DNA of 64,000 nucleotides from Candidatus Bipolaricaulota bacterium (lineage in GTDB: Bacteria; Bipolaricaulota; Bipolaricaulia; UBA7950; UBA9294): assembly GCA_040752575.1 (NCBI GenBank), contig JBFMGK010000011.1, forward strand, positions 2,580 through 66,579, given 5' to 3'. The stretch's first letter is position 1. Every line of letters begins with the position of its first letter. Below are positions 3,067-59,752 of this stretch, in pieces. A model generated the notes under the pieces. The model was not told the origin of the DNA. It worked only from the letters and a program-made list of their open reading frames with translations, and did no database searches. The translations under genes and the position numbers were made by a program.

Positions 3067-4407
3067 ATGTGTCGGAAGTTGGGAGCATGCATTGTGGTGT
3101 TGTTGATGTTCCTAGCACTCGCTGGCGTGGCCGCACTCGGCGCCGGGCGCTATGAGGCGATCGCGGGAGACTACCAGATCGACATCACGAACCTTGGGAT
3201 GCCGCTCATCTTCTACCTGCGGATTGACGCGGACGGGGCCTTCATGCTCGCCCCGAATACGGGTTTCGATCCCGTCGAGAGTCGCGGCGAGGGAGTGCTT
3301 GCCGAGAGTGGCGGCGTCTACATGATGATCTACAAGGAGCACACGTCCGACAATCCCAAGACGGCGACCTTCGTGCTCGACGGGCCGAACCTGGTGTTTC
3401 AATCGCGGCTTCCCTATGGCGCGAGCAACATCCTAAACAGCGCCGAGGATCCGGACGATCCGACGATTGTCTACCTCCTGACCGCGGACACGCTGGTGCT
3501 CGCGGAGTATTTCGGCACCTACGTCGGCTCCCACTCCACGCAGGCCATGGGGGCCACCGTCGAGTACGTGTACACGCTCGAGCTGAAGGCCGGGCTGCGC
3601 TATGCGTTCGTGAGCGAATTCGCCATGGGCGGCACCGACTACAGCTATGCCGAGAACGGTACCTGGAGTGTGGCCGACGGCAAGCTGACGCTTGATCCCG
3701 CCGACGAGGACCCCGTCGAGGGGACCATCAGCGCTGAAGGCGAGATCACCGTCGCGATCCGCCCGTCCGCTATGGCACCGATGAGGGCCGACCGCATTCT
3801 GCGCATCGCAACCCATGCCGAGGTGGCAGGCACCTACGTTGGCGAGAAGTCCTCGCCCATGTACACGGTGAAGTCGACGCTGGACCTGGACATGTTCGGC
3901 AACTACCACTACAGCGCCGATGTCGGAATGCCCGACAAGTACGAAGAGACGGGGGCGTACGATGTGGTCGACGGCACCGTCACCTTGGCCCCTGAAGGCG
4001 GGGCGGCGTACATGGCGATGTTAGCGAATCTGGTCGTGACGGGACGCTTCCGAATCATCGGCTCGATGCCGGCGACGGACCTCGTTATGTACAGCTCGAC
4101 GATTCAGGGAACGTTCGCCGGTACGGCGACAAACGAGGAGATCGAGTACACCGCTCGCCTCACGCTGAGCCCGGGTGGCACGTATGCGCTGCAGGTGACG
4201 GACGGCACGGAGCAAGTGATCGTCGACTCGGCGGGTAGCTTCGAGATGCGGCGCGGCATGACGCTCATGGTCGTCCTCGCCGGTATGGACCCGGCGCCGA
4301 CGTGTTCCGTCAGCGCCGAGGAGCTGAACCTGTCCATCGTGCTTCCGGGCGTCACCGTGACCTCGGGGATGGGCGGCGGTCTGGGCTTCACGCTCCGGAG
4401 AGAGTGA
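3067..4407 (+). CDS. Secreted protein with four lipocalin-like beta-rich repeats
   Basis: Signal peptide; repeated G-[TD]-[YF]-x starts (AGDYQ, FGTYVG, AGTYVG, QGTFAG); strong RBS. Confidence 0.75.
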   Translation: MCRKLGACIVVLLMFLALAGVAALGAGRYEAIAGDYQIDITNLGMPLIFYLRIDADGAFMLAPNTGFDPVESRGEGVLAESGGVYMMIYKEHTSDNPKTATFVLDGPNLVFQSRLPYGASNILNSAEDPDDPTIVYLLTADTLVLAEYFGTYVGSHSTQAMGATVEYVYTLELKAGLRYAFVSEFAMGGTDYSYAENGTWSVADGKLTLDPADEDPVEGTISAEGEITVAIRPSAMAPMRADRILRIATHAEVAGTYVGEKSSPMYTVKSTLDLDMFGNYHYSADVGMPDKYEETGAYDVVDGTVTLAPEGGAAYMAMLANLVVTGRFRIIGSMPATDLVMYSSTIQGTFAGTATNEEIEYTARLTLSPGGTYALQVTDGTEQVIVDSAGSFEMRRGMTLMVVLAGMDPAPTCSVSAEELNLSIVLPGVTVTSGMGGGLGFTLRRE

Positions 4408-4519: not shown

Positions 4520-6484
4520 ATGCCCAGAGCGCGGGGGATTACGATCGCGTGTCTTGTGCTGCTGACGGGCGCAGCGTTGCTCCAAACGGGCTGCCAGAAG
4601 ACCGAGTATCTCCGCCGTACCGACTCGACGAACACCCTCTACGTGGGCGTCGTCGAGTCGTCGTTTCCCGTGGCGTTCATGCCTTGGCTCTCCCGCGATG
4701 GAATCGCTCCGACCATCGCCAGCATGCTCTACAGCACGCTGTTCTCCTACGATGACGAGACCGGCGGATTCCTCCCGGGTCTCGCGCGGGACTGGTGCTA
4801 CGTCGATGCGCAGGGGGCGCCGATCGTCACCGAATCAGGCGGCATCGATTACGCGCGGGTCGAGACCGAGGGAGTGAAAGTTCTGCGGAATCCGCAGACG
4901 GGGAAGAACGAACGGTATTTGACGGTCCGCATCGAACTCGACCCCCATGCCCGGTGGAGTGACGGGCATCCGGTCACCGCAGAAGACGTCTACTACACGT
5001 TCGACATCGCGAGGAACAACTACCTCTCCAACCATGCCGGCGCGCTCGCGTGGACGGCCGACCTGTTGCACCTGTACTCGAACACGGGCCAGCTTCAGCT
5101 GCAGGGAGTCTTCACCTACAACCACGGTGCAGCCGATCTGGGATACCCCATCGCCGAGGCGGAGCGAGACCTGGTGGTCTACGTTCACGTTCGCGGCGTC
5201 CTGGGGGCGGTCACCAGCCTGTTCACGACGATTCTCATCCTTCCCCACCACCTCTGGGAGCCCGTCGTGAGCCGCCAGAACCAACTGAACAGCCGGAGCC
5301 CGGATGCCCACATGCAGCACCTCTATCAGAACCCGGTCGGCAGCGGCCCGTACGTCCTCGATGCTGCGGCTTCAGGGCCTTCGCAGATCGTCCTCCGGCG
5401 CAACGAGCTCTATCACCAGACCCGAGAAGACTCCAGCCCGCTCTACACCGTCGAGACCCTGCGCCTGGTGCTGTATCAGGAAATCAACGTGGCCATCTAT
5501 GCCGTCATGCAGGGCCACATCGACATGCTCAGCGCCGGCTTGAGCCCGAATTACGTGAAGCTGTTCGAAGGTCGTGACGACCTGTTCCTGTCGATCGCCG
5601 AGGGCGTGTTTACCCAGACCTTGGTGTTCAACGTCAACCCCGTCGCCTCGGAGCAAACCCCCTTGCGAAGGTTGCTGTCCGATGCGCGAGTGCGAAGGGC
5701 CATTGCGCTGGCGATCGACACGGACATGCTCATTCGCCTGGTCGCCAATGGTGCGGCGACGCGCATGAGCGCCGGTCTGATTGCCGAGAGCTTGACCGAC
5801 TTCTGCAATCCGAGCGCCGACATTCTTCACGGGGAGCACGCGGCCCGCCTGGAGGAAGCCAATGACCTCTTGGATCAGGTCGCGCCGCAGAGAGACGCTC
5901 AAGGATATCGCCTCCTCGAGGGAGAGCGCGTTACGTTCAACGTGTTGGGGCATCCCGGAGAGATGGAACTGGTCGCGTTCCTCGAGATCCAGCTCCAGAA
6001 GATCGGCATCAAGATCCGCTACCAGGCCAAGGGCAACTCGCCCGAGACGACGCACCTATGGACGAGCCGTTTCGACATGACCCTGCACGGGGTCATCTTC
6101 TCGCTCGCGAACGTCGACATCATGCTCAATGCCCACTTTGTCGCGCTGGGGCGCACGTCGAACTACGGCCGCCTGATCGAGCCGGAGCTGGCCGCCGCGA
6201 TCGAGGAGATGAGGTCCACCCTGAATCTCCACCGCAAGTTCGCGTTGCTGTACGACCTGCAGCCGGTGATCGCCGGGCTGTTCTACAAAGTCCCTCTTTA
6301 CACGCCGCAGATCATCTCCATCGCCCGGACAGATCGATACACCGGCTATGAAGTCGTCCCGGGCGAGGTCGTATTCAACTCGACCAACCTGCAGCGGATC
6401 CAGCGCGTAGAGTCTCCAGGCGACGCGGAGCCGTCGGCGGACGATGGCGCGGTGTCGCGGTGCGAACCGGGAGAGAGACAATGA
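4520..6484 (+). CDS. ABC transporter substrate-binding lipoprotein, family 5 (OppA/DppA-like)
   Basis: Lipobox LQTGC; ARWSDGHPVTAEDVYYTF; NPVGSGPY; VRRAIALAID. Confidence 0.9.
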   Translation: MPRARGITIACLVLLTGAALLQTGCQKTEYLRRTDSTNTLYVGVVESSFPVAFMPWLSRDGIAPTIASMLYSTLFSYDDETGGFLPGLARDWCYVDAQGAPIVTESGGIDYARVETEGVKVLRNPQTGKNERYLTVRIELDPHARWSDGHPVTAEDVYYTFDIARNNYLSNHAGALAWTADLLHLYSNTGQLQLQGVFTYNHGAADLGYPIAEAERDLVVYVHVRGVLGAVTSLFTTILILPHHLWEPVVSRQNQLNSRSPDAHMQHLYQNPVGSGPYVLDAAASGPSQIVLRRNELYHQTREDSSPLYTVETLRLVLYQEINVAIYAVMQGHIDMLSAGLSPNYVKLFEGRDDLFLSIAEGVFTQTLVFNVNPVASEQTPLRRLLSDARVRRAIALAIDTDMLIRLVANGAATRMSAGLIAESLTDFCNPSADILHGEHAARLEEANDLLDQVAPQRDAQGYRLLEGERVTFNVLGHPGEMELVAFLEIQLQKIGIKIRYQAKGNSPETTHLWTSRFDMTLHGVIFSLANVDIMLNAHFVALGRTSNYGRLIEPELAAAIEEMRSTLNLHRKFALLYDLQPVIAGLFYKVPLYTPQIISIARTDRYTGYEVVPGEVVFNSTNLQRIQRVESPGDAEPSADDGAVSRCEPGERQ

Positions 6485-13458: not shown

Positions 13459-13548
13459 CGGGCGCATGCCTTGCGGCGCGAGCGATCCGCTTCCGCATCA
13501 GCTCAGACCTCAAGCCGCTCTACATACAGAGGCGCCCGGCGTAGCTGC

Positions 13549-13700
13549 GGGGTCAGATCTTCATTCTTGGTGTTCCTGCGGCTCCGTGATGAGTCTCAGG
13601 TGCCTCGGGCTCGGTCCTGCGTCACGACGGTGGGCGCGCGGCAAACCTTCCTCTTGGGCGAAGTCGCACTGCTGTCGGGTGGCGGGGGCGCGTCTTGCCT
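13549..13700 (+). repeat. Direct repeat copy 1 (152 bp), starting and ending in 26-bp GGGGTCA..TCTTG motifs
   Basis: 150/152 identical to 15382-15533. Confidence 0.95.
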
Positions 13701-14153
13701 TTGGGCGTTGGGTCCGGTTGACCGTCTGCGATAACGGGTTTGTCGGCCTTCCCCTGATATGTTCATAGTGTCGATGCGTGAGTCAGCTCCGTGTACTGGT
13801 CGCGAACGCATACGTGCAGGAGCGCAACGAGTGCAGAGGCCACAACCAAGTGCAGAGGCTCCCCGCGCGCGGGTTCGCTACTTCGCTGACGAAGCGGGGG
13901 GCCCAAAGCTCTTCGGTGAGAAGGGGCGCTGCATCACCGGCAAGGACGGATGCTCGCACTGCTTTGCTCTCCGACTCCCCGAAGTCGAGGCCCGCGCGGA
14001 ATGCGAAGCAGGCTGAAGCTGGTGCAGAAGCGGCTGCTGGCCGATCCATGCTCCCGTGGAGCCAGCAGCGTCCATGCCGCGACCGCGGCAACGAAGGGCT
14101 AGCTCCATGGCGGGATTGTGGTTGTTATCTATCTGGATTACTCTATTCTGCAC

Positions 14154-14948
14154 ATGAGAGGCTACCGTTTGTACGTCGACGAGGTCGGTAATTCCAGCCT
14201 GCGCGTCGGCGATCCGAACAACGAGAACGATCGCTTCCTATCGCTGACCGGCGTAGCCGTTCGAGGAGACTACGCACTCGCGTCCTTCGTGCCTGAGATG
14301 GATGCCCTGAAGAGGAGATTCTTCCAGACAGACCCAGACGTGCCGGTGATCCTCCACAGGACGGATATGCTCAACAGGAAGTGGCCTTTCACCGAGTTGC
14401 AGGACCCGGCTACAGAGAGCGCTTTCTATGTAGCGTTGAACGAGCGACTGGCAGCGTGGGAATATGCAGTTGTCTCCGTCGTGATAGACAAGCACCGGCA
14501 GAAGAATCTCTACCAGGTTTGGCAGGCTAATCCATATCACTACTGCATGAAGGTGCTACTAGAGAGGTACGTGATGTTCCTGCAGGGGGGCAGCGCGACG
14601 GGCGATGTCATGGTAGAGAGCAGACAGGCGAAAGACGACTTCAAGCTCAAGGAGTCGTACAAGCGTCTCTACATCTCCGGCACCGAGCGAATCGCAGCCA
14701 CGAGTTTCCAGCGCCGGCTATCGTCGAAGGAACTGAAGGTCAAACCCAAGAGCGCCAATATCGCGGGCCTTCAACTCGCGGATCTACTCGCCTGCGGAGC
14801 GCAACGAGGGATTCTCTCCGAGGTTGGGCTCCCGTCTCGCTCGAACCACGGGTTCGACTCGGATGTCTGGGCGCTTCTTGAGGGCGCGAAGTTCATCCGT
14901 GACCGCGATGGAAAGACTCTTGGGTTCGGAAAGAAACTCCTCCCATAG
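14154..14948 (+). CDS. DUF3800 domain protein
   Basis: LYVDEVG N-terminus, VILHRTDM, ESR..KDD, NIAGLQLADLLA. Confidence 0.85.
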   Translation: MRGYRLYVDEVGNSSLRVGDPNNENDRFLSLTGVAVRGDYALASFVPEMDALKRRFFQTDPDVPVILHRTDMLNRKWPFTELQDPATESAFYVALNERLAAWEYAVVSVVIDKHRQKNLYQVWQANPYHYCMKVLLERYVMFLQGGSATGDVMVESRQAKDDFKLKESYKRLYISGTERIAATSFQRRLSSKELKVKPKSANIAGLQLADLLACGAQRGILSEVGLPSRSNHGFDSDVWALLEGAKFIRDRDGKTLGFGKKLLP

Positions 14949-14954
14949 AAGAAG

Positions 14955-15030
14955 AGAAGCGCCCGTTGGGGCGCCCTCCCGATGGCCTACGGACCATCCA
15001 CCTCCGACGAGCGGATTACTCCGAGCTTAG
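14955..15030 (+). ncRNA. Candidate DUF3800-associated structured RNA
   Basis: GC-rich short stems (GCGCCC/GGGCGC; GATGG/CCATC) immediately after the DUF3800 stop; position typical of DUF3800 RNA motifs; no covariance test done. Confidence 0.4.
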
Positions 15031-15133
15031 CATTGTGTACGTGCGAAGTCAAGAGCGCCGCGGCTGCGTAACCCACACCTCTACTGAGCTTGGCGCATCT
15101 TGCGCAGAGTTTCGAAGCGGGCGACGGGGTCTG

Positions 15134-15542
15134 GGAGTCAGAGTCGTTTCTTGCCCCTAGACGGCAGTGGGTCAAAACGAAGCTGGCGTTGACACCAGTG
15201 AGGTCGCGTGGTCAGATCTCAACTCTTTGCATCGCGCGGCACCTCGACAGGACGTCAAAGTGGCCGCGGGGTCAGATCTTCATTCTTGGTGTCTCTGCGG
15301 CTCCGTGATGAGTCTCAGGTGCCTCGGGCTCGGTCCTGCGTCACGACGGTGGGCGCGCGGCAAACCTTCCTCTTGGGCCACGGGGTCAGATCTTCATTCT
15401 TGGTGTTCCTGCGGCTCCGTGATGAGTCTCAGGTGCCTCGGGCTCGGTCCTGCGTCACGACGGTGGGCGCGCGGCAAACCTTCCTCTTGGGCGAAGTCGC
15501 ACTGCTGTCGGGTGGCGGGTTCGCGTCTTGCCTCTTGACGTT
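15134..15542 (+). repeat. Array of GGGGTCA-family motifs (about 15134, 15208, 15268, 15382, 15517) including repeat copies 2 (15268-15378) and 3 (15382-15533)
   Basis: Direct alignment; 114-bp tandem duplication; variable spacing 74/60/114/135 bp. Confidence 0.85.
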
Positions 15543-15748
15543 GGCACGGGCGACCCCCTTGATGCGGTGTCGTCTGGTCCTGCACTGCTGCACCCCGGCG
15601 CACCATCCGTCGGCGTGAAGAGGCCGCCAACGCCGTTCGACTTCGCTACTGCCGCGGTGCAGCTTCCCCGGCGCATCCCCGAAAGGGGGAGACGGTCGAA
15701 GCGCTGGAAATGGCGGAATCTCCTGGTCTAGGTCTTGCGCGCAACGGC

Positions 15749-16813
15749 CTAGAGCACGCCCTCGGCCGCGCCGAAGGCCTTCGAGATGACGCGTTCCGTT
15801 TCGCCGCTCACAATCATCAGCAGGTAGTCGCCGACCTCGATCGAGATGTCGTCCCGCGGGAGTTTCAGCAGCTTGCGGCCACCGCTTGTGCCCTTTGCGA
15901 TGCCGATGAGGACGACGTTGTATGCCTTCTTGAGGTCAACGAAGGCGTCCCCGTACGTCCGCCCCGCGTAGGGATTGCCTGGCGTCACGAGGAACTGCTG
16001 GATGTCGTATTCGTCGCTCCCCTCGGCAGAGGCGAGTAGATCGGCCTCGTACTCCGCGACGTCGGGTTCGAAGATGTAACTGGCAACCATCTTCGCGGCG
16101 ATCTCGCCTCGGGAGAGCACGAAGGTCACTCCCGCCGTGCGGAACGTCCCTCGGAGATCCTCGTTATCCAACGCGACGACGAACTGCGCGTTCGGGAATT
16201 CGCGCTTGATGTTGAGGATGGCCACCAGCTTGTCCGTGTCGGTCTTAAGGTTCGGGAAGACCATTCCGGCGTCTCGGATCCCGGCTTTCTCCAAGACGAG
16301 CGGATCCCTGAGATCGGCGAACAGCACGAAGACCTTGTCCCTTGGGAACTGCTCGTGGATCAGATCGACGTCGTCCTTCGCATCGGTAACGATCGCGACG
16401 CGCAGATCGGCTTTCAAGAGCTGCTGCGCGACCGACTTGGCGAAGTCGTCCCAGCCTACGATGAGAACATGCTTGCTGAAGCTCGTTCCATTGTGCCCCA
16501 TCCTTCTGCGCTCCCTTATCTCCGAGAGGCGTCCGGAGACCTTGTAGACGAGAACTCCGAGGACGCCAAGGCTGCCCAAGAGAAAGAGCGAGCCGATCGC
16601 CCTTCCCCCCGCGCTGACGGGGTACTTGTCCCCGTATCCGACGGTGGTGAGCGTGACGAGCGAGTACCAAGCGGCATCGCCGACACTGCGGATCGTCGCG
16701 CCGGGGTGCCCACGTTCAGCCCACACCAGAGACACGACGAGGAGGCTCCAGACCAGAACCAGAGGGACGATCACCTGCCACAGCCTCGGTCCATTCGTCT
16801 GCCGACCGCTCAC
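15749..16813 (-). CDS. Potassium channel protein (2-TM pore plus RCK/TrkA domains)
   Basis: Selectivity filter TLTTVGYGD, KHVLIVGWDDF; GGAGG RBS before GTG 16813. Confidence 0.92.
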   Translation of the reverse strand: MSGRQTNGPRLWQVIVPLVLVWSLLVVSLVWAERGHPGATIRSVGDAAWYSLVTLTTVGYGDKYPVSAGGRAIGSLFLLGSLGVLGVLVYKVSGRLSEIRERRRMGHNGTSFSKHVLIVGWDDFAKSVAQQLLKADLRVAIVTDAKDDVDLIHEQFPRDKVFVLFADLRDPLVLEKAGIRDAGMVFPNLKTDTDKLVAILNIKREFPNAQFVVALDNEDLRGTFRTAGVTFVLSRGEIAAKMVASYIFEPDVAEYEADLLASAEGSDEYDIQQFLVTPGNPYAGRTYGDAFVDLKKAYNVVLIGIAKGTSGGRKLLKLPRDDISIEVGDYLLMIVSGETERVISKAFGAAEGVL

Positions 16814-17104
16814 GACACCTTCCTCCCGCCTGCCGGGCCGCCGGCCATCTGCCCGATCGAACGTCACCCGCAGCCCCGAGCCCTCGCGTGAGGCGTTGCC
16901 TGCCGTGGCGGGACGCCTCGGCAGAGAGCATAGGGCGAGAACGAGGCGGAAGGAAGAGATCCTGACGAAGGATGCCTCGGGTTCGGCTTGCGGCGAGGCT
17001 TGTGGGGCGGCATCGGTCGCGGCGCAGAGAGCCGTGACGAGCGCCCTCCCGACGCCGATCCCTACGCCCAGGTCCGGCGGCGTCAGGCGCGAAGAGCAGG
17101 CTAG

Positions 17105-18301
17105 TTACGTTGGCGGCGCAGAGGCGCTGCCCAGATCGAGGAGCCGGCTCTCTCCCTGGAGGCTCCGGATCTCTGTCGCATCCTGACTGACCTCGAGGCA
17201 ACCGAGATACGAACCCTGCTCGTCCCGAACTGCGAAGTACTCGATCACGATGAAGCGGCCGCCCAGTTGGATCCAGAATCGCGCCTCGTTTCGCGATCCG
17301 TTCTTGAACGCATCCAAGATCTGGAGGACCTTGTCAACGCTCTTGGGAGGATGGCAGTTCGTAACCGAACGGCCGATCACGGCGGGGGTGCGGGGGAAGA
17401 CGCGCTGCGGGTTGTCGGAGTAGAACTGCACCCGATCCTGCGCGTCGACGAAGCTAATGTCGACGGGCAAGCGAGTCAGCATCCGGCGAAGCTGCAGCTC
17501 GGTGAGTTGCCCCGTCGCGAGGCGGATCCCGGCGACGTCTTGCCCTTGTCCGCCCGTCCTCGAGCTGTCTTCCGGCGTCGCAGGCCACGCGGGGGGCTTG
17601 CCGAAGGCGAATCCGACGGCCTCCTCGCCGCGGCGCATCTCGACCCACTCCTGGTCGGACAGCTTACCCAAGGCCATTGGGAAAAGGATCTTCTCTTCCT
17701 TGTAGATCATCTCCGTGATGGCCTGGGCCAAGCTTGCGATGTCCCGAGCTCCCGCCTCGCGATCGCCTGTGAGTGCCTCCGCATCGAGGTCGCGAAGCTG
17801 CTTACGGATCTGGTCGTGGATGCCCCACATCACCTGCGTCGGACCCGTCACGCCGTGCTTTTCGAGGAAGGGAAACAGCTGGTTCTCCTTCCGGAGGTAA
17901 TGGATGTGGACCTTCGCGAGGGTTGCGAGATGTTCGGCGATGGCTGCATGGCGGCTGCTTTGCTCCTCGATCCGCGAGGCCTCGAGAAGACGATTTGCAG
18001 CTTGCTCAAACTCGCGATTCTCCAGCATGTAAGTGTGAAGGGGATGGCCCGCCGGAACGCGAGAGATGCCTTGGTCCTGGAGGCGGTCGCGGACAACGCC
18101 TACGTGGAGATCGCAAAGACGTTGGATCTCCTCCACGGGGAGCCCTTGGCGGATGAGCGTCTGCTCCATCTCAGCCAACTCGTCGGGGGACACCTCGGCG
18201 ATCAGACGGTCGAACCTCGCCTTCACACTCTCAACGGCTTCTCCTGCGTGAAGAGCCAGAATCATCCTCTTCAGGGCTTCAGTCTTCTGCGCGTCAACCA
18301 T
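17105..18301 (-). CDS. DUF438-hemerythrin-PAS domain protein
   Basis: LHAGEAVESVKARF, LCDLHV, GHPLHTY..EN, HYLRKENQLFP, MWGIHDQIR, C-terminal PAS with NCHPPKS. Confidence 0.88.
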   Translation of the reverse strand: MVDAQKTEALKRMILALHAGEAVESVKARFDRLIAEVSPDELAEMEQTLIRQGLPVEEIQRLCDLHVGVVRDRLQDQGISRVPAGHPLHTYMLENREFEQAANRLLEASRIEEQSSRHAAIAEHLATLAKVHIHYLRKENQLFPFLEKHGVTGPTQVMWGIHDQIRKQLRDLDAEALTGDREAGARDIASLAQAITEMIYKEEKILFPMALGKLSDQEWVEMRRGEEAVGFAFGKPPAWPATPEDSSRTGGQGQDVAGIRLATGQLTELQLRRMLTRLPVDISFVDAQDRVQFYSDNPQRVFPRTPAVIGRSVTNCHPPKSVDKVLQILDAFKNGSRNEARFWIQLGGRFIVIEYFAVRDEQGSYLGCLEVSQDATEIRSLQGESRLLDLGSASAPPT

Positions 18302-29982: not shown

Positions 29983-31071
29983 ATGAGAGCGCGAAACGCG
30001 ATGGCCTTAGCGATGCTCGTTGCGTGTGCCGTAACATGGGTTGGGGGATGGGTTGTTGCACAGGATGCGAGTCTGGTGATTGGGCTCATCCTCCCGGGAC
30101 CGAAGAATGATGCCGGTTACAACCAGACGTTCTACGATGCTGTACTGGAAGTGCAGGCGAACATCCCCAACGTCAAGGTCGTTGTAGCGGAGTGGGTCGC
30201 CGACGCGGATGCCGAGAGCACGATGGAGACGATGATCCAACAGCAAGGGGCGGAGCTGATTCTTGCTTGCGGGTTCGCCTTCCAATATCCGGCACTGGCC
30301 GTGGCGGAAAGGCACCCGGATGTCAAGTTCATGCATCCCGGGGGGTGGGAATCAACACACAATTTCATCAATTTCTTCGCCACAACGCAGCTGCATTTCT
30401 ATCTAATGGGGGTGGCGGCGGGCATGATGACGGAGACCGACAAGATCGGGTTCATCGCCGGTATGCCGCTGGGCTACATGTACGGCAACGCGAACGGTTT
30501 CCATCTTGGTGCCAGAGCCGTGAATCCCGACGTGCAGACGCATCTACTCATGACCTTTGCGTGGTACGACCCCGCGAAGGAGGTCGCTGCCGTCCAGGCA
30601 CTGCTTGACGCCGGATGTGACGTCTTCACCTACCACCTCGACTCGCCGTCCGCGGTGATCCAGGCTGTTGAGGCGGGCGGCGCGCGGACGATCGGCTTCA
30701 TGTCCACGGGGGCGCAGCAGTACGCCCCGAGCGGCTGGATCACCGGTCTGTTGCTGTCATGGGGCGACTACTTCACCGAAAACGCGCAAGCCGTGATCGA
30801 TGGAACCTGGGAAGGATTCCGATGGGATCGGTTGGGCCTTGCCGACGGAATGCTGGAGATCGCACCGTTCGGCGATGCCGTGCCGGATCGCGTACAGCAG
30901 TTTGTCTTGGCTGTAGCTGAGGGCTATAAGGCGGGTCTCATCGACACGTTCATCGGGCCGCTCGCGGACCAGGACGGTGTCATCCGAATCGCGGAGGGCG
31001 AGTTCTGGGGCAATGACCGGATGGGCGATTGGGACTTCCTGCTCGAGGGGATGGTTGGACAAGCTCAGTAG
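29983..31071 (+). CDS. BMP family (purine nucleoside-type) substrate-binding protein
   Basis: GPKNDAGYNQ, GMMTETDKIGFIAG, NGFHLGA..VNPD, WYDPAKE. Confidence 0.9.
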   Translation: MRARNAMALAMLVACAVTWVGGWVVAQDASLVIGLILPGPKNDAGYNQTFYDAVLEVQANIPNVKVVVAEWVADADAESTMETMIQQQGAELILACGFAFQYPALAVAERHPDVKFMHPGGWESTHNFINFFATTQLHFYLMGVAAGMMTETDKIGFIAGMPLGYMYGNANGFHLGARAVNPDVQTHLLMTFAWYDPAKEVAAVQALLDAGCDVFTYHLDSPSAVIQAVEAGGARTIGFMSTGAQQYAPSGWITGLLLSWGDYFTENAQAVIDGTWEGFRWDRLGLADGMLEIAPFGDAVPDRVQQFVLAVAEGYKAGLIDTFIGPLADQDGVIRIAEGEFWGNDRMGDWDFLLEGMVGQAQ

Positions 31072-31079
31072 AACGGTGC

Positions 31080-31120
31080 CGTGGGGGGGGGGGGGCGCGG
31101 GGGGGGGGCCCCCCCCCACG
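31080..31120. repeat. G13-CGC-G10-C9 low-complexity hairpin after the BMP gene
   Basis: CGTGGGGGGGGG / CCCCCCCCCACG stem; homopolymer lengths may be unreliable. Confidence 0.6.
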
Positions 31121-31176
31121 CGTCTTGCCGTCGTCGCGCCGAGACACGCCTGAGCTTGCATCCAGAGGACAGAGGT

Positions 31177-32226
31177 ATGATGAACTCGCTACCGGCACTG
31201 CACATCGGGTCGCGTGCGCTGGCACTTCTCGGGACTGCCGACGCGCGATGGGATGTGCTTGCGACGGTTGGGCATGCCGTGTACATCGTGAACCGCGATG
31301 GAGAGATCGTCTGGATCACTGATCGGGCCGAAGCTCTGCACGCGAGGGGGGTCCTGCTTGCTGCGCTGCCGACGCGTCTGACGAACTCCCGATTGCCGTT
31401 GCGTGCTTCCGCGGGACGGCTTCATTGCGCGGGTGTTAAACTGACCTGGCGGCAGGTCGATCTGTGGGAGCCGCGAGCCGCCGTGACCTCGGACAGCCGT
31501 GTCGAAGGCTTTCCGGATCGTGTTTGCGATGCGATCCGGTCCGTGGGGAGCATGGAAGGCCCCCCAGCGGGAGTTCGCAGGGACGAAGCACTTCCTGAAG
31601 GCGACGGCAGTCCGGGCGGGGAAGCTTCGGTCGCAGACGCACTCACCGAGAAGCTCATGCGCGGCGTGCGGACACTGTCGGTGGCTCCGGCGGGCTCCGA
31701 AGTGCTGCCTAGGCTTCGCGCGGTGGCGTATGTGGTGGGGTTGGGGCAGGGCCTGACGCCAGCCGGAGATGATATGTTGGGGGCGTTCCTGTACACCCTG
31801 CAGATGCTGAGTGGGACATGCTACGCAATGCCGGGCATCGATTGGGCAGATGTGCGGGCATGGGTTCACAGGGTGGCGCGTCGCACGAGTGTCATCAGCC
31901 GTTGCATGCTTCTTGATCATGCCTATGGCTCGACCTGTGCTCCGTTGGCCGAGTTCCTGCGCGCGGCGCTCGAAGGCGGAGAGGATGCGCAGCTCTCTCG
32001 ACTGGCCCGCGGTGTTGCCGGCGTCGGCGCTTCCTCCGGGCGGAGTCTACTTGCCGGGGTCGGAGCCGCCTGCAGCGCGATGCTGACGTGCCGCGCTGGC
32101 CCAAATCCGGTGCCTGTTGGACGAGTGGATGTCGTGCTGGGCGAAGATCAGAGAAGGGAGGTCGCGTGTCCGTTGACGTCAAGCGGGAGATCGAACAGGC
32201 AAACGGCGAATTCCTGCGTAGGGTAA
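31177..32226 (+). CDS. DUF2877 protein (YlbF/AllH, YahE-like)
   Basis: VGLGQGLTPAGDDMLGAFL, RTSVISRCML, GASSGRSLLAG. Confidence 0.85.
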   Translation: MMNSLPALHIGSRALALLGTADARWDVLATVGHAVYIVNRDGEIVWITDRAEALHARGVLLAALPTRLTNSRLPLRASAGRLHCAGVKLTWRQVDLWEPRAAVTSDSRVEGFPDRVCDAIRSVGSMEGPPAGVRRDEALPEGDGSPGGEASVADALTEKLMRGVRTLSVAPAGSEVLPRLRAVAYVVGLGQGLTPAGDDMLGAFLYTLQMLSGTCYAMPGIDWADVRAWVHRVARRTSVISRCMLLDHAYGSTCAPLAEFLRAALEGGEDAQLSRLARGVAGVGASSGRSLLAGVGAACSAMLTCRAGPNPVPVGRVDVVLGEDQRREVACPLTSSGRSNRQTANSCVG

Positions 32227-55388: not shown

Positions 55389-55549
55389 GAGCGGCCGGGA
55401 GAGTGGCGTCACGCCCCCGGCGTGGGGGGATGTCCATGGGGCGTCTCGGTGCGTGAGACAGAGCCAGCCTCGCACGCCAGCAAAGCGGCTTCCCGTCGTC
55501 TTGAGGAGCGCCGAGCGCCGCTTGCTGACGTTTGGCCTGGAGCCTGAGA

Positions 55550-55642
55550 GCCGATCAGAGAACTCCGGTGGCCGTGGCAGAGTGGTAGTCATTGGCGGCG
55601 AACGGAACATCAAGAGGCAAGGGGTGACCCCACTGCCCGTGT
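55550..55642. repeat. Dispersed repeat copy A containing the 26-bp motif on the minus strand (55606-55631)
   Basis: Colinear, roughly 80% identical to 57055-57144. Confidence 0.85.
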
Positions 55643-55785
55643 ACCCCTGCGAATGCATTGCGACGTGCGTCTTGAGTTCCCTCAGTTCTCACGCCAAGAC
55701 GCTGGAGGCCTCACGGTGGTATCCTGGGAAGCGCGCATTGCGCAACACGGCGGAGGCGTTGTCGTGCCAGAGGAAGGAGTGCACC

Positions 55786-56976
55786 GTGGCGGCATTGCGG
55801 CGATTTGCGTGGATGGGGCCACTGATCGTGCTGGCGGCGAGCGCCATCGCATGTGGCCAGGTCACATCTTCTTCGCTGTTCGAGATGCTGGCGCGGGTGC
55901 CGCAGGCCGCGGTGCCCGCAAACAGCGTGTGGGCGGTCGCCCGCTACGCCAACTACGAGGCATTGTTCGCCGCCGAGGGTGCGACAGAGCTTCGGGATCT
56001 CGGAGACGTGGCACGGATGATGGAGTCCCTGCCGCTTGGCGCCATACTGAACCGCGTCGTCGCCGGTCCGGAAGCGATCAACTACCTCTCTTCGGGTACA
56101 GGGCAGATGCCCGACGTAGTTGGCTTCGAGTGGCTCGTGGATGTCGATAGCAGCCTCGAGTTCGGGGATCCGCCGGACCTCGGCTTGCTTCTGGGCGGCG
56201 ACTTCGACGCCGAGGCGATCGGACGAGCGCTACAGGGCCGCAACTTCGCCCTCGAGGAGATCCAGGGGGTTCCGGTCTGGCACCGGTTGGGGGATCGAGA
56301 GATCTCGCTCCAAGACCGCAATCCGGCCGATCCGTTTGGCGGTCACCTCGGAGCGGCGGCGCGCATCGCACTCCTTCCGAGGATGATCGCCAATGCCCGC
56401 AGTTGGCCGTTCATCGAGGCAATCCTTGCTGCGGGGACAGGCGAGCTGCCATCGTTGGCCGAGGACGTGGGCTACCGGGCGCTTGCCACAGCCGTCTCGG
56501 AGCCAGAAGGGATGCTCATCCAGGCGTTGCTGTTCACCGGCGCTTCGTTGCGTGTGACGGATGTCCCCGAGCTGTCCGGCGACCTAGCGCTTGAGCCGAT
56601 CGACGGACTGCCGTGGTACTCCCACGCCATCCTTGCCGATCGACAGGAGGGCGACGATCAGGTTCACCTCATCGGGCTGGTGTGCAGCGACAGGGTCACG
56701 GCGCAGACTGCCTCCTTCGTGCTGTCAGGGCGCTTGGAAGCCTTCCATCCGCCCGATCAGCCCGAGCAGGTGCTCGCCGAACGATACGGGGCGACGACCC
56801 GTGCTTCGGTCATCGAGTTCCCTGAGGACAACTTGGCCATCGCCCTGGTCGAGGTACGCTACCCCGTGCCCGCCGACCGCGACGACCCAGACACCGGCTT
56901 CTACGCCACGCTCGGCCCTCTGTTCCGCGCGTGGGTGAACGCAATCCTCCGGCGTGAGTTCAGCCCCCTCTGGTGA
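55786..56976 (+). CDS. Hypothetical secreted/lipoprotein
   Basis: AGGAAGGAG RBS, GTG start, hydrophobic leader ending AIACG. Confidence 0.7.
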   Translation: MAALRRFAWMGPLIVLAASAIACGQVTSSSLFEMLARVPQAAVPANSVWAVARYANYEALFAAEGATELRDLGDVARMMESLPLGAILNRVVAGPEAINYLSSGTGQMPDVVGFEWLVDVDSSLEFGDPPDLGLLLGGDFDAEAIGRALQGRNFALEEIQGVPVWHRLGDREISLQDRNPADPFGGHLGAAARIALLPRMIANARSWPFIEAILAAGTGELPSLAEDVGYRALATAVSEPEGMLIQALLFTGASLRVTDVPELSGDLALEPIDGLPWYSHAILADRQEGDDQVHLIGLVCSDRVTAQTASFVLSGRLEAFHPPDQPEQVLAERYGATTRASVIEFPEDNLAIALVEVRYPVPADRDDPDTGFYATLGPLFRAWVNAILRREFSPLW

Positions 56977-57054
56977 TTCGCGGGTGCGTTGGAGCTGCTC
57001 CGTCCCGTCGATGGGCGGAAGTGCTCCACGAGGGGATGGATCGTGGAACCTGGG

Positions 57055-57144
57055 GCCGATGAGAGAACTTGGGTAGCCGTGGCAGAGTGGTAGTCATCGG
57101 CGCCGAACGGAACGTCAAGACGCAAGAGCTGACCCCGTCGCCCG
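57055..57144. repeat. Dispersed repeat copy B containing the 26-bp motif on the minus strand (57111-57136)
   Basis: Direct repeat of 55550-55642. Confidence 0.85.
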
Positions 57145-58564: not shown

Positions 58565-59518
58565 AGGGTCAGGTCTTCCTATCACGCATTCCTTCTTCTC
58601 CGTATCACACCTTCCTGTGCGCGCACGCGGCGGCTGATGGTCGAGTAGTGAATGCGAAGATGCGCGGCGATCTCCTGCTGGGTGTAGCGGTGTTCGAGGT
58701 ACGCGCGGGCAATCCCGGCAGCGTCATCGGGGTTGGAGACGATGGCGATGAGTGCAGGCCGCCCGGCGACAAGCTGATCCCGGGGGATCTCTGAGAAGGC
58801 CGTTCGCGGGGGCGTGTGCTCCTCGATGAACGCGTCGCTCCCCAGATAGACTTGCCCGCGCAGGTTCTCCCACACCGTGACCCCGCGGCCTTGTGATACG
58901 AACTTCCGGTACGCCTTCTGCGCTCTGGCCCTCGATGCGCCGAACTGGTCAAGGATCCAGTCGGTCGTTAGGAACTCGGGTGTGGCCTCGAAACCGGCCG
59001 TGGCGCGATAGCTTGACCATGGCCAGTCCCGCGCGGAGCGGACCATCCGAGCTCGAACCGGATTCAGGACCACGTAGCGGGCGAGCTCAAGGAGGTACGG
59101 ATCCCGCTCCACGAGGACTCCCTTGAAGCGCCCCTGGAAGACGTGGCCCGTTCTTCGGTGCCTGCGGTTGAACTCCTGGGTGTACACGCCATTCAGCTGT
59201 CGCATCCCGAGAGACAGGGTGGGCTCAAGCGTCTCGATCAGGAGGTGATATGTGGTTGGCGACGCTGCGCGTCGCTAGGGGCGAACTGCGTTCGCCTTGA
59301 CGTTCTGGCAATACGCATGGCACTGCCAAGTGAACCGTTCGACGACCTCCGTGAGCAGCTCGAGGAACATCTCTCGGTCGGGGTCGGTGAAGAAGATCTT
59401 CTCGCGCGCATTGCCGCGACAAGTCACATGGTAGACAGCTCCGGGGTACTCAATTCTCAGAGGACGAGCCATATGCCCAGCATAGCCCTTTCGGTGCTTG
59501 ATAGGAAGACCTGACCCT
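58565..59518 (-). mobile_element. RAYT (TnpA-REP, Y1 HUH) element bounded by perfect 20-bp inverted repeats
   Basis: AGGGTCAGGTCTTCCTATCA at 58565-58584 and its reverse complement at 59499-59518. Confidence 0.85.
58582..59472 (-). pseudogene. RAYT transposase with C-terminal HTH, interrupted at the HUH motif
   Basis: MARPLRIEYPGAVYHVTCRGN...CHAYC, in-frame TAG 59277-59275, YHLLIET..GMRQLNGVYTQEFNRRH.R.GHVFQGRFK...NPVRA...WPWSSY. Confidence 0.92.
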
Positions 59519-59549
59519 ACGCCCTGACCCTACGCCCTGACCCTACGCC
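59511..59549. repeat. Tandem repeat (CTGACCCTACGCC)x3
   Basis: Three exact 13-bp units overlapping the RAYT upstream inverted repeat. Confidence 0.95.
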
Positions 59550-59752
59550 CCGGGTCCCACTCAAGTCGGACAGTGAGGTCCTCGTCTCCGGCCGTGATCG
59601 GCACGAGTCGCATGGGGCACCTCCACTCCCTGGACGCGTTCGGACAGCCGGGTAGCACATCGACGGCACGGGCTGCTCGGCTGTTGCCAGGAGCATGACC
59701 CGCCGCCGCTGTGCGTCGAGCGTCGCGGGAGTCCGTGTACGAAGGCGCAACG

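Follow-up and report, generated by a model that had tools for sequence, protein, structure and literature searches.

The window analysed here, the whole stretch of 64,000 nucleotides (nt) from a Candidatus Bipolaricaulota bacterium (GenBank assembly GCA_040752575.1, contig JBFMGK010000011.1, positions 2,580 to 66,579), carries between 13.5 and 15.6 kb a DUF3800 gene of 264 amino acids (14154-14948, + strand; PF12686, 2.3e-13) enclosed by direct repeats, which contain copies of a motif of about 24 bases, GGGGTCAGATCTTCAYTCTT. The cluster occupies what used to be the gap between two convergent genes, those of an ABC-2 permease and of a K+ channel, the latter now lying to the right of the cluster (15749-16867, - strand). 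Relatives of the motif, and a pseudogene of the transposase type to which we relate it below, occur between 55 and 60 kb. The remaining window is ordinary chromosome (transporters, regulators, metabolism), in which a 26-G run (84% matches) was also observed at 31083-31108, at the junction of the open reading frames (ORFs) 29983-31071 and 31081-32226.

Motif copies in the cluster

Motif copies are called TIRs here, after the identity proposed for them below. The 12-mer GGGGTCAGATCT was found exactly at 13549, 15268 and 15382 in a string scan of the window, and the same three positions matched a 21-nt consensus at 21/21, followed by 15208 and 57116 (-) at 17/21, 55611 (-) at 16/21 and 15517 at 15/21. 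A hidden Markov model trained solely on 42 motif copies from other genomes was then run on the window with nhmmer. It returned the three exact copies at E values of about 1e-8 (13549, E=2e-8; 15382, E=8e-9) and, directly below them at rank 4, the copy at 15208 (E=0.25). The latter is a degenerate variant-A TIR, GTGGTCAGATCTCAACTCTT (15208-15231, + strand), whose orthologue in the groundwater metagenome contig L001, GTGGTCAGATCTTCACTCTT, matches the 21-nt consensus at 19/21. A second variant, B, has the consensus GGGGTCAsCyCTTGCsTCTTGAyGTT, defined by sister copies at 55606 (-) and 57111 (-) aligned with that at 15517. Against a background maximum of 18/26 in the window, the copy at 15517 (TIR_B, 15517-15544, + strand) scored 23/26, and a degenerate copy at 13684 (TIR_B', 13684-13711, + strand), about 80% identical to it, scored 20/26. 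In related-strain contigs the 15517 copy is nearer to the variant-B consensus (T15520G, G15525A); in the window it closes the repeat region, 205 nt short of the stop codon of the K+ channel gene.

A sequence-only reading of this DNA had described, downstream of DUF3800, five co-oriented copies at about 15134, 15208, 15268, 15382 and 15517, spaced by 74, 60, 114 and 135 nt. When re-measured, these positions and spacings were correct, and the copies at 15208, 15268, 15382 and 15517 are borne out by the scores above, but the first one (15134-15163, + strand; 71% identical over 31 nt to 15510-15540) is unsupported. Concerning the concern that the outer copies might score at background, this is the case for 15134 (17/26) and not for 15517; a partial GGGTCA reported at 15167 is also background and not a copy. 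On the other hand, that reading overlooked two copies on the upstream side of DUF3800, the full one at 13549 and the degenerate variant-B one at 13684. The repeats are real, the motif copies are fewer than first claimed, and the structure is larger than the downstream interval to which it had been assigned. Supported TIR copies in the window are those at 13549, 13684, 15208, 15268, 15382, 15517, 55606 (-) and 57111 (-). Throughout the 13.5-15.6 kb region they lie on the + strand, with no minus-strand match of 14/21 or more.

Repeat architecture around DUF3800

Given the upstream copies at 13549 and 13684, a 164-nt direct repeat, the first 139 nt of which are 100% identical, brackets DUF3800. 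The blastn alignment places the left side against 15381-15544 at 97% identity, the two copies being 1833 nt apart. The left copy of the perfect 139-nt repeat, R-A (13548-13686, + strand), is identical to 15381-15519, opens with the TIR GGGGTCAGATCTTCATTCTTGGTG (13549-13572) and is directly followed by TIR_B'. On the right side of DUF3800, 114 nt are tandemly duplicated in perfect register (15262-15375 and 15376-15489; 97% identity; TRF period 114, 2.0 copies, score 441). The first unit, R' (15262-15375, + strand), has its TIR at 15268, and the second unit together with the right copy of the 139-nt repeat forms R-C (15376-15519, + strand), with its TIR at 15382. Given this duplication, the earlier observation that two spacers are duplicates was right. 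In the 114-nt unit, 6 nt of left flank precede the TIR, and a GGC microhomology marks the boundaries of the unit. The whole layout can be read as TIR_A with a 112-nt spacer, TIR_B', 21 nt, the DUF3800 block, 9 nt, TIR_A with 90 nt, a further TIR_A with a 112-nt spacer, and TIR_B.

With the first G of the motif as reference, R-A and R-C match at every position from -1 to +137, differ by 5 mismatches in the next 25 nt, and are unrelated thereafter. The perfect tract opens with the first G of TIR_A, to which one ambiguous base is added, and closes inside the initial GGG of the variant-B TIR that follows. Were divergence uniform, all five mismatches would, by our own calculation, end up in the last 25 of 164 positions with a probability of about 8e-5. 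This identity up to +137, with the mismatches crowded behind it, points to a recently copied or homogenised unit of 136 nt that has TIR outer edges at both sides. R', however, departs from the other two copies at positions -2, +25 and +26, and the perfect 139-nt identity could therefore also be a gene-conversion tract.

Origin of the DUF3800 block

The segment 13733-15258 (+ strand), which contains the DUF3800 gene, is 94.9% identical over 1527 nt to contig L001, and this is the only stretch that L001 and the window have in common, the flanks being unrelated on both sides. As it shows about 95% identity to part of an otherwise unrelated defence-island contig, the block was acquired horizontally. 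Its GC content is 0.55-0.60, compared with 0.62-0.66 in the flanks. In L001 (253-7281) the block lies amid a MmeI-type restriction-modification gene, a PDC-S05-like gene and a HigB-like toxin gene, a gene content that identifies the region as a predicted defence or toxin-antitoxin island. The L001 block is without TIR_B' at its left end, which indicates that the block did not travel as a TIR-led unit. Only the DUF3800 core 14115-15058 is common to the next closest DUF3800 locus, L164, at 78% nucleotide identity. The TIR-like copy at 15208, situated inside the block 50 nt before its right breakpoint, consequently lies outside the conserved DUF3800 gene unit.

Homologues of the DUF3800 protein numbered 875, mostly of 262-264 amino acids, and its search for function gave no sequence match in PADLOC, NCBIfam or PDB. 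Neither the window's DUF3800 protein nor the flanking permease had an exact protein on record. In L001, a single-nucleotide difference at window position 13999 leads to the DUF3800 ORF being called as 372 amino acids. As the gene stands between 139-nt perfect direct repeats, recombination can delete or move it.

A 151-nt sediment-metagenome contig (runs X15/X16; window 13676-13742) was found to contain TIR_B' and the first 10 nt of the block after a different upstream sequence, which ends in CTTCTTGACGTTGGCG, another variant-B-like end. It possibly represents a junction that lacks R-A, and is consistent with R-A as a later arrival.

Identity of the repeated motif

To find the motif elsewhere, one genome per prokaryotic species was scanned with GGTCAGATCTTCAYTCTT, which yielded at least 80 loci where, by our own estimate, about 35 are expected by chance. 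About half of the listed matches are chance or coding sequence, e.g. in a conserved GAPDH-like gene. The full GGGG-prefixed 20-mer occurs at 24 loci among the matches listed, often several per genome, in hosts belonging to Bipolaricaulota, many Desulfobacterota, a Thermotogae MAG, an Aquificales MAG, a Micrarchaeota archaeon and unclassified bacteria; the best TIR matches agree with a placement of the window's genome in Bipolaricaulota. At two of the loci, L004 and L066, two inverted motif copies surround a gene of 287-289 amino acids whose protein starts with MARPLRLEYEGAVYHVTSRGN and matches Y1_Tnp (PF01797, 2.9e-9) as well as the REP-associated tyrosine transposase family of NCBIfam (NF047646, 82.6 bits with a cut-off of 80). 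The stop codon of this gene sits in the repeat, with H Q E stop encoded by CAC CAA GAA TGA and followed by AGATCTGACCCC. Identical 20-24-mers are also found at the ends of Y1 genes in L013 and L065. Across genomes, homology is confined to the stretch from -3 to about +921 from the motif, which argues that the unit ends at its TIRs.

Elements of this kind were named TIRtrons, and their transposase genes TIRYT, by Di Nocera 2013 (BMC Genomics 14:522, PMC3733652), according to whom their TIRs share GGGGWSAS and are found as singles, dimers and clusters. TIRYT constitutes Y1 subclass 2.1 (TnpA_REP-like), with a C-terminal HTH and without REP-like hairpins (Quentin 2018, PMC6006769). The outer end GGGGTCAG of the copies at 13549, 15268 and 15382 agrees with GGGG[AT][CG]A[CG]. 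A search of the literature for the motif string returned no paper, and the motif is absent from the Di Nocera supplements; among mobile-element collections, the plasmid collection gave no match and the viral contigs no exact TIR.

Taken together, these comparisons identify the motif as the end-repeat of the TIRYT type of Y1/HUH transposase genes, a little-studied family related to the REP-associated RAYTs. Our full reading, to which we give a probability of roughly 0.7, is that the locus gathers orphan copies of this TIR, of variants A and B and all in one orientation. The cluster can now be given a name, that of orphan TIRYT/TIRtron end-repeats duplicated around an acquired DUF3800 gene, i.e. 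a selfish repeat of a known kind, and the repeats have no evident cellular function. TIRYT/TIRtron elements are widespread across many phyla, and we know of no TIRYT enzyme that has been tested at the bench.

Two further observations concern TIRs in other genomes. In the Desulfobacterota loci L057 (543-664), L063, L017 and L048, the TIR forms short inverted doublets of 58-122 nt that are MITE- or REPIN-like. In L016, L032, L068 and L069 the last bases of the 5' TIR are TTGACA, and TATAAG stands 17-18 nt further on; judged by its match to consensus, this pair in Desulfobacterota 5' TIRs is a predicted consensus-like promoter for the TIRYT gene.

TIRtron pseudogene and TIR-led units elsewhere in the window

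The window has a TIRtron of its own (58565-59518, - strand), in which a TIRYT gene (Y1/HUH, C-terminal HTH; 58582-59472) lies between 24-nt inverted repeats, AGGGTCAGGTCTTCCTATCACGCA (58565-58588 and 59495-59518, 96% identical), whose sequence starts AGGGTCAGGTC. Their outer end, AGGGTCAG, agrees with GGGG[AT][CG]A[CG] at 7/8 positions. The gene was recovered by tblastn with the L004 protein (5e-92, 53% identical) and by hmmsearch with a TIRYT profile (9e-107), and its C-terminus matches HTH_23. At about 59255-59300 it contains an in-frame insert of 42 nt, made up of two perfect 7-bp hairpins and carrying a TAG, which turns the HUH motif NHYH into TTYH, the frame being otherwise open. Because this insert destroys the HUH motif, the gene is a pseudogene; as the window has no other TIRYT gene, ongoing activity, if there is any, depends on a further copy in another part of the genome. 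Neither hairpin of the insert recurs elsewhere in the window.

The variant-A TIR is unlike the TIR of this pseudogene, and the window carries three related TIR variants: A in the array, B at 13684, 15517, 55606 (-) and 57111 (-), and C at the pseudogene ends. Two variant-B TIR-led units, of which the first measures 102 nt (55538-55639, - strand), are 84% identical and in direct orientation to each other, the second being located at 57044-57144 (- strand); their homology opens about 9 nt before GGGG. They bracket an ORF of about 1.4 kb (within 55453-56976) that has no Pfam match, so that 55538-57144 represents a second gene between TIR-led repeats in the window.

At the 5' TIR of the pseudogene, a 13-nt sequence, GGCGTAGGGTCAG, is tandemly repeated 3.2 times (59510-59550, - strand; TRF 100% matches, score 82), comprising the outer octamer of the TIR and flank. 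The repeated sequence corresponds to GTAG fused to the TIR octamer and abuts the TIR on its outside, and L026 has an analogue, CATAGGGGTCAG, in two copies. The duplication of flank plus octamer both in the window and in L026 suggests a putative breakpoint just 3' of the octamer.

Structural tests and comparison with known systems

Searches for hairpins and RNA signals were negative. A permissive Rfam scan of 13500-17500 returned no match, and the R unit did not fold better than shuffled sequences either as RNA or as DNA (z +0.65 to +1.5; as DNA, z +0.65). DNA folds of the TIRs had energies of -0.3 to -5.6 kcal/mol, with z values of -0.4 to +1.3 relative to shuffles. No promoter-like site and only weak terminator-like matches were detected in a promoter and terminator scan. 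Two candidate explanations of R as gene sequence were rejected: its translations look non-protein, and as a remnant of a TIRYT gene it obtained negative bit scores with the profile that gave 9e-107 for the pseudogene used as control.

Among known systems, TIRtrons are the closest. Like the gene of the window, they combine a Y1/HUH domain and a C-terminal HTH between non-hairpin inverted repeats starting with GGGGWSAS, and, as in the window, further TIR copies lie scattered, singly, in dimers or in clusters. In contrast to them, the cluster described here is made up entirely of orphan copies in one orientation, and neither of their two variants is the TIR of the local gene; the cluster includes a tandem duplication and brackets a foreign gene, and the local TIRYT is a pseudogene. 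The R unit is bounded by co-oriented TIRs (variant A at 5', variant B at 3') and not by inverted ones, and hence is not a MITE-like TIRtron derivative.

The REP/BIME and REPIN systems associated with RAYT (E. coli TnpA_REP; Pseudomonas) are similar in having short intergenic repeats, also clustered, which go with a domesticated Y1 transposase, present in single copy and with inverted copies of that repeat on either side. However, a REP is a palindrome that forms a hairpin and bears a GTAG/CGTC tag, and a REPIN is a doublet of inverted repeats, whereas the TIRs of the window are unfolded and their cluster is head-to-tail. As they do not fold, they are not REPs in the strict sense, and a REPIN organisation, with inverted REPs and a short spacer, was not found in the 13.5-15.6 kb region. 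IS200/IS605 elements (IS608, ISDra2) belong to the same enzyme superfamily as TIRYT, and a behaviour like their single-strand 'peel and paste' transposition, with one strand cut at two co-oriented sites, reinsertion beside a specific sequence and no short target duplication, would explain a unit that runs from GGGG edge to GGGG edge; on the other hand, the ends of IS608 have subterminal hairpins and tetranucleotide cleavage sites, and no such hairpins are present in the window TIRs.

The sequence-only reading had remarked a likeness to CRISPR and integron arrays and set it aside, as no cas or intI genes were seen. We agree: none was detected among the 38 window ORFs scanned, and no site folds as attC does. 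A CRISPR array was rejected because no cas domain occurs in the ORFs scanned and because of the spacings (60/114/135) and duplicate spacers. The likeness to integron cassette arrays goes further, with head-to-tail units that carry a motif resembling a recombination site, one of them with a promoterless foreign gene; it ends with the missing integrase and the units being mostly non-coding duplicates. For annotation, head-to-tail motif clusters of such kind should not be read as CRISPR-like or integron-like arrays.

Alternative explanations

Different scenarios might also account for the repeats. If the DUF3800 segment had inserted once with a long target-site duplication, the 139-164 nt of R-A and R-C would be the duplicated target, which happened to contain TIRs. 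This scenario fits the identity of R-A and R-C over 139 nt, and L066 offers a parallel: 105-nt direct repeats (98%; 3303-3407 and 5019-5123) surround a 195-aa cargo gene and an intact TIRtron (1.6 kb), one of these repeats starting 7 nt past the TIR outer end. The L066 repeats themselves resemble either a long target duplication or a one-ended mobilisation. In our locus, however, the bracket is without a TIRYT gene, a diverged partial copy, R', lies inside the supposed insert, and identity stops exactly at TIR_B, the next 25 nt being about 80% alike, which differs from what a simple duplication predicts. The X15/X16 contig, moreover, suggests that TIR_B' and the block exist together without R-A. 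We therefore regard a target-site duplication as unlikely.

An artefact of metagenome assembly, with additional R copies arising from strain variants or from the collapse or expansion of a repeat, deserves attention, as the window is a MAG contig and the 139-nt perfect repeat is near read and k-mer length. No indexed public run holds the whole stretch, the best share of words being 0.23, and none of the low-depth Logan contigs of relatives spans a repeat junction. Nevertheless, the junctions from R-A to TIR_B', from the block to R' and from R' to R-C (CTCTTGGGC followed by CACGGGG) are unique sequences, the R copies carry private differences, De Bruijn assemblers tend to collapse repeats rather than multiply them, and the same architecture recurs in independent assemblies, all of which makes an artefact highly improbable. 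Still harder to credit is a functional array, be it CRISPR-like, integron-like (attC) or composed of sRNA or regulatory sites for DUF3800 or the channel gene. The co-oriented repeats with variable spacers do adjoin a gene that is found in a defence island elsewhere, but their spacing is irregular and their spacers duplicated, the 38 ORFs scanned include neither cas gene nor integrase, the searches for Rfam matches, folds and promoter-like sites were negative as described above, and a TIR-like stretch lies outside the conserved DUF3800 unit. An orthologous empty site was also sought and none was found, the nearest K+ channel relatives (75-77% amino acid identity) showing neither synteny nor R-like DNA.

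Boundaries and growth of the array

Returning to a cluster of orphan TIRYT end-repeats, the boundaries of repeats in other genomes bear on how it may have grown. Among pairs of TIR-bearing segments, 20/21 homologies start 2-12 nt before GGTCAG, in other words anywhere from the first G of GGGG to a point 10 nt further upstream. Direct repeats of 100-210 nt that have one boundary at a TIR outer end and bracket 0.2-2.6 kb were present at 5/24 TIR loci versus 1/56 chance loci, the bracketed spans being 1.7-2.6 kb in L013, L032, L058 and L066, and 217 nt in L004. The position of repeat boundaries on the outer (GGGG) edges of the motif suggests recombination at transposase ends.

IS608-type relatives cut one strand at two ends and rejoin it at a third site, a behaviour established for these relatives only. 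We infer that the array may have grown by recombination at the outer GGGG edges of its TIRs, in which a unit of 136-139 nt, with the first G of TIR_A at one end and that of the next TIR at the other, would have been copied in front of another TIR. By analogy, such units could be made by a Y1 enzyme with two co-oriented cutting sites on one strand and a third site at which it rejoins the strand. The 114-nt unit, in turn, would be an ordinary slipped-strand tandem duplication at GGC microhomology; its right end in the parent copy is not at a TIR, which counts against a mechanism acting at TIR edges. As far as the sequences tell, the units may have arisen by serial insertion, or by duplication or gene conversion, and the array could also reflect a 139-nt gene-conversion tract whose ends lie near TIRs for homology reasons only. 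The sequence-only reading, in which the locus consisted of serial insertion scars or an expanding site array, came close in spirit, inasmuch as the motif is a transposase end-repeat and growth would have proceeded by duplication with breakpoints at such ends. It did not recognise the identity of the motif, however, and what it took for an array is mostly one 114-nt tandem duplication, to which the bracketing repeat upstream of DUF3800 has to be added.

A bolder version of this scheme, which we consider improbable on the present comparisons, is that the GGGGWSAS outer edges would be the recombination points of TIRYT, and the stretch between co-oriented TIRs a cassette that reinserts before another TIR, in an HUH-driven, integron-like form of gene capture. 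Hints in its favour are the perfect repeat that reaches from one GGGG edge to the next, the flank-plus-octamer duplications of the window and L026, and the bracketing direct repeats of L013, L032, L058, L066 and L004. If true, cassette movement would build head-to-tail arrays that trap foreign genes such as DUF3800, and would constitute a gene-capture mechanism in Bipolaricaulota and other anaerobe phyla. The locus is a natural case in which repeat boundaries map to the nucleotide on the outer edges of the octamer, a coincidence worth following up, and it has a recently transferred gene between perfect direct repeats; it thereby yields specific predictions on where the TIRYT enzyme cuts and on which circles or deletions should be detectable.

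A repeated TIR-led segment of another composition was observed in L007 (2337-2660) and, in the same genome on the opposite strand, in L024. It comprises the TIR and 313 nt with an IS3-family OrfA-like fragment (EILRKASAFFAQAELDRRPK), and the homology between the two loci opens 9 nt before the motif and closes at a GGGG.
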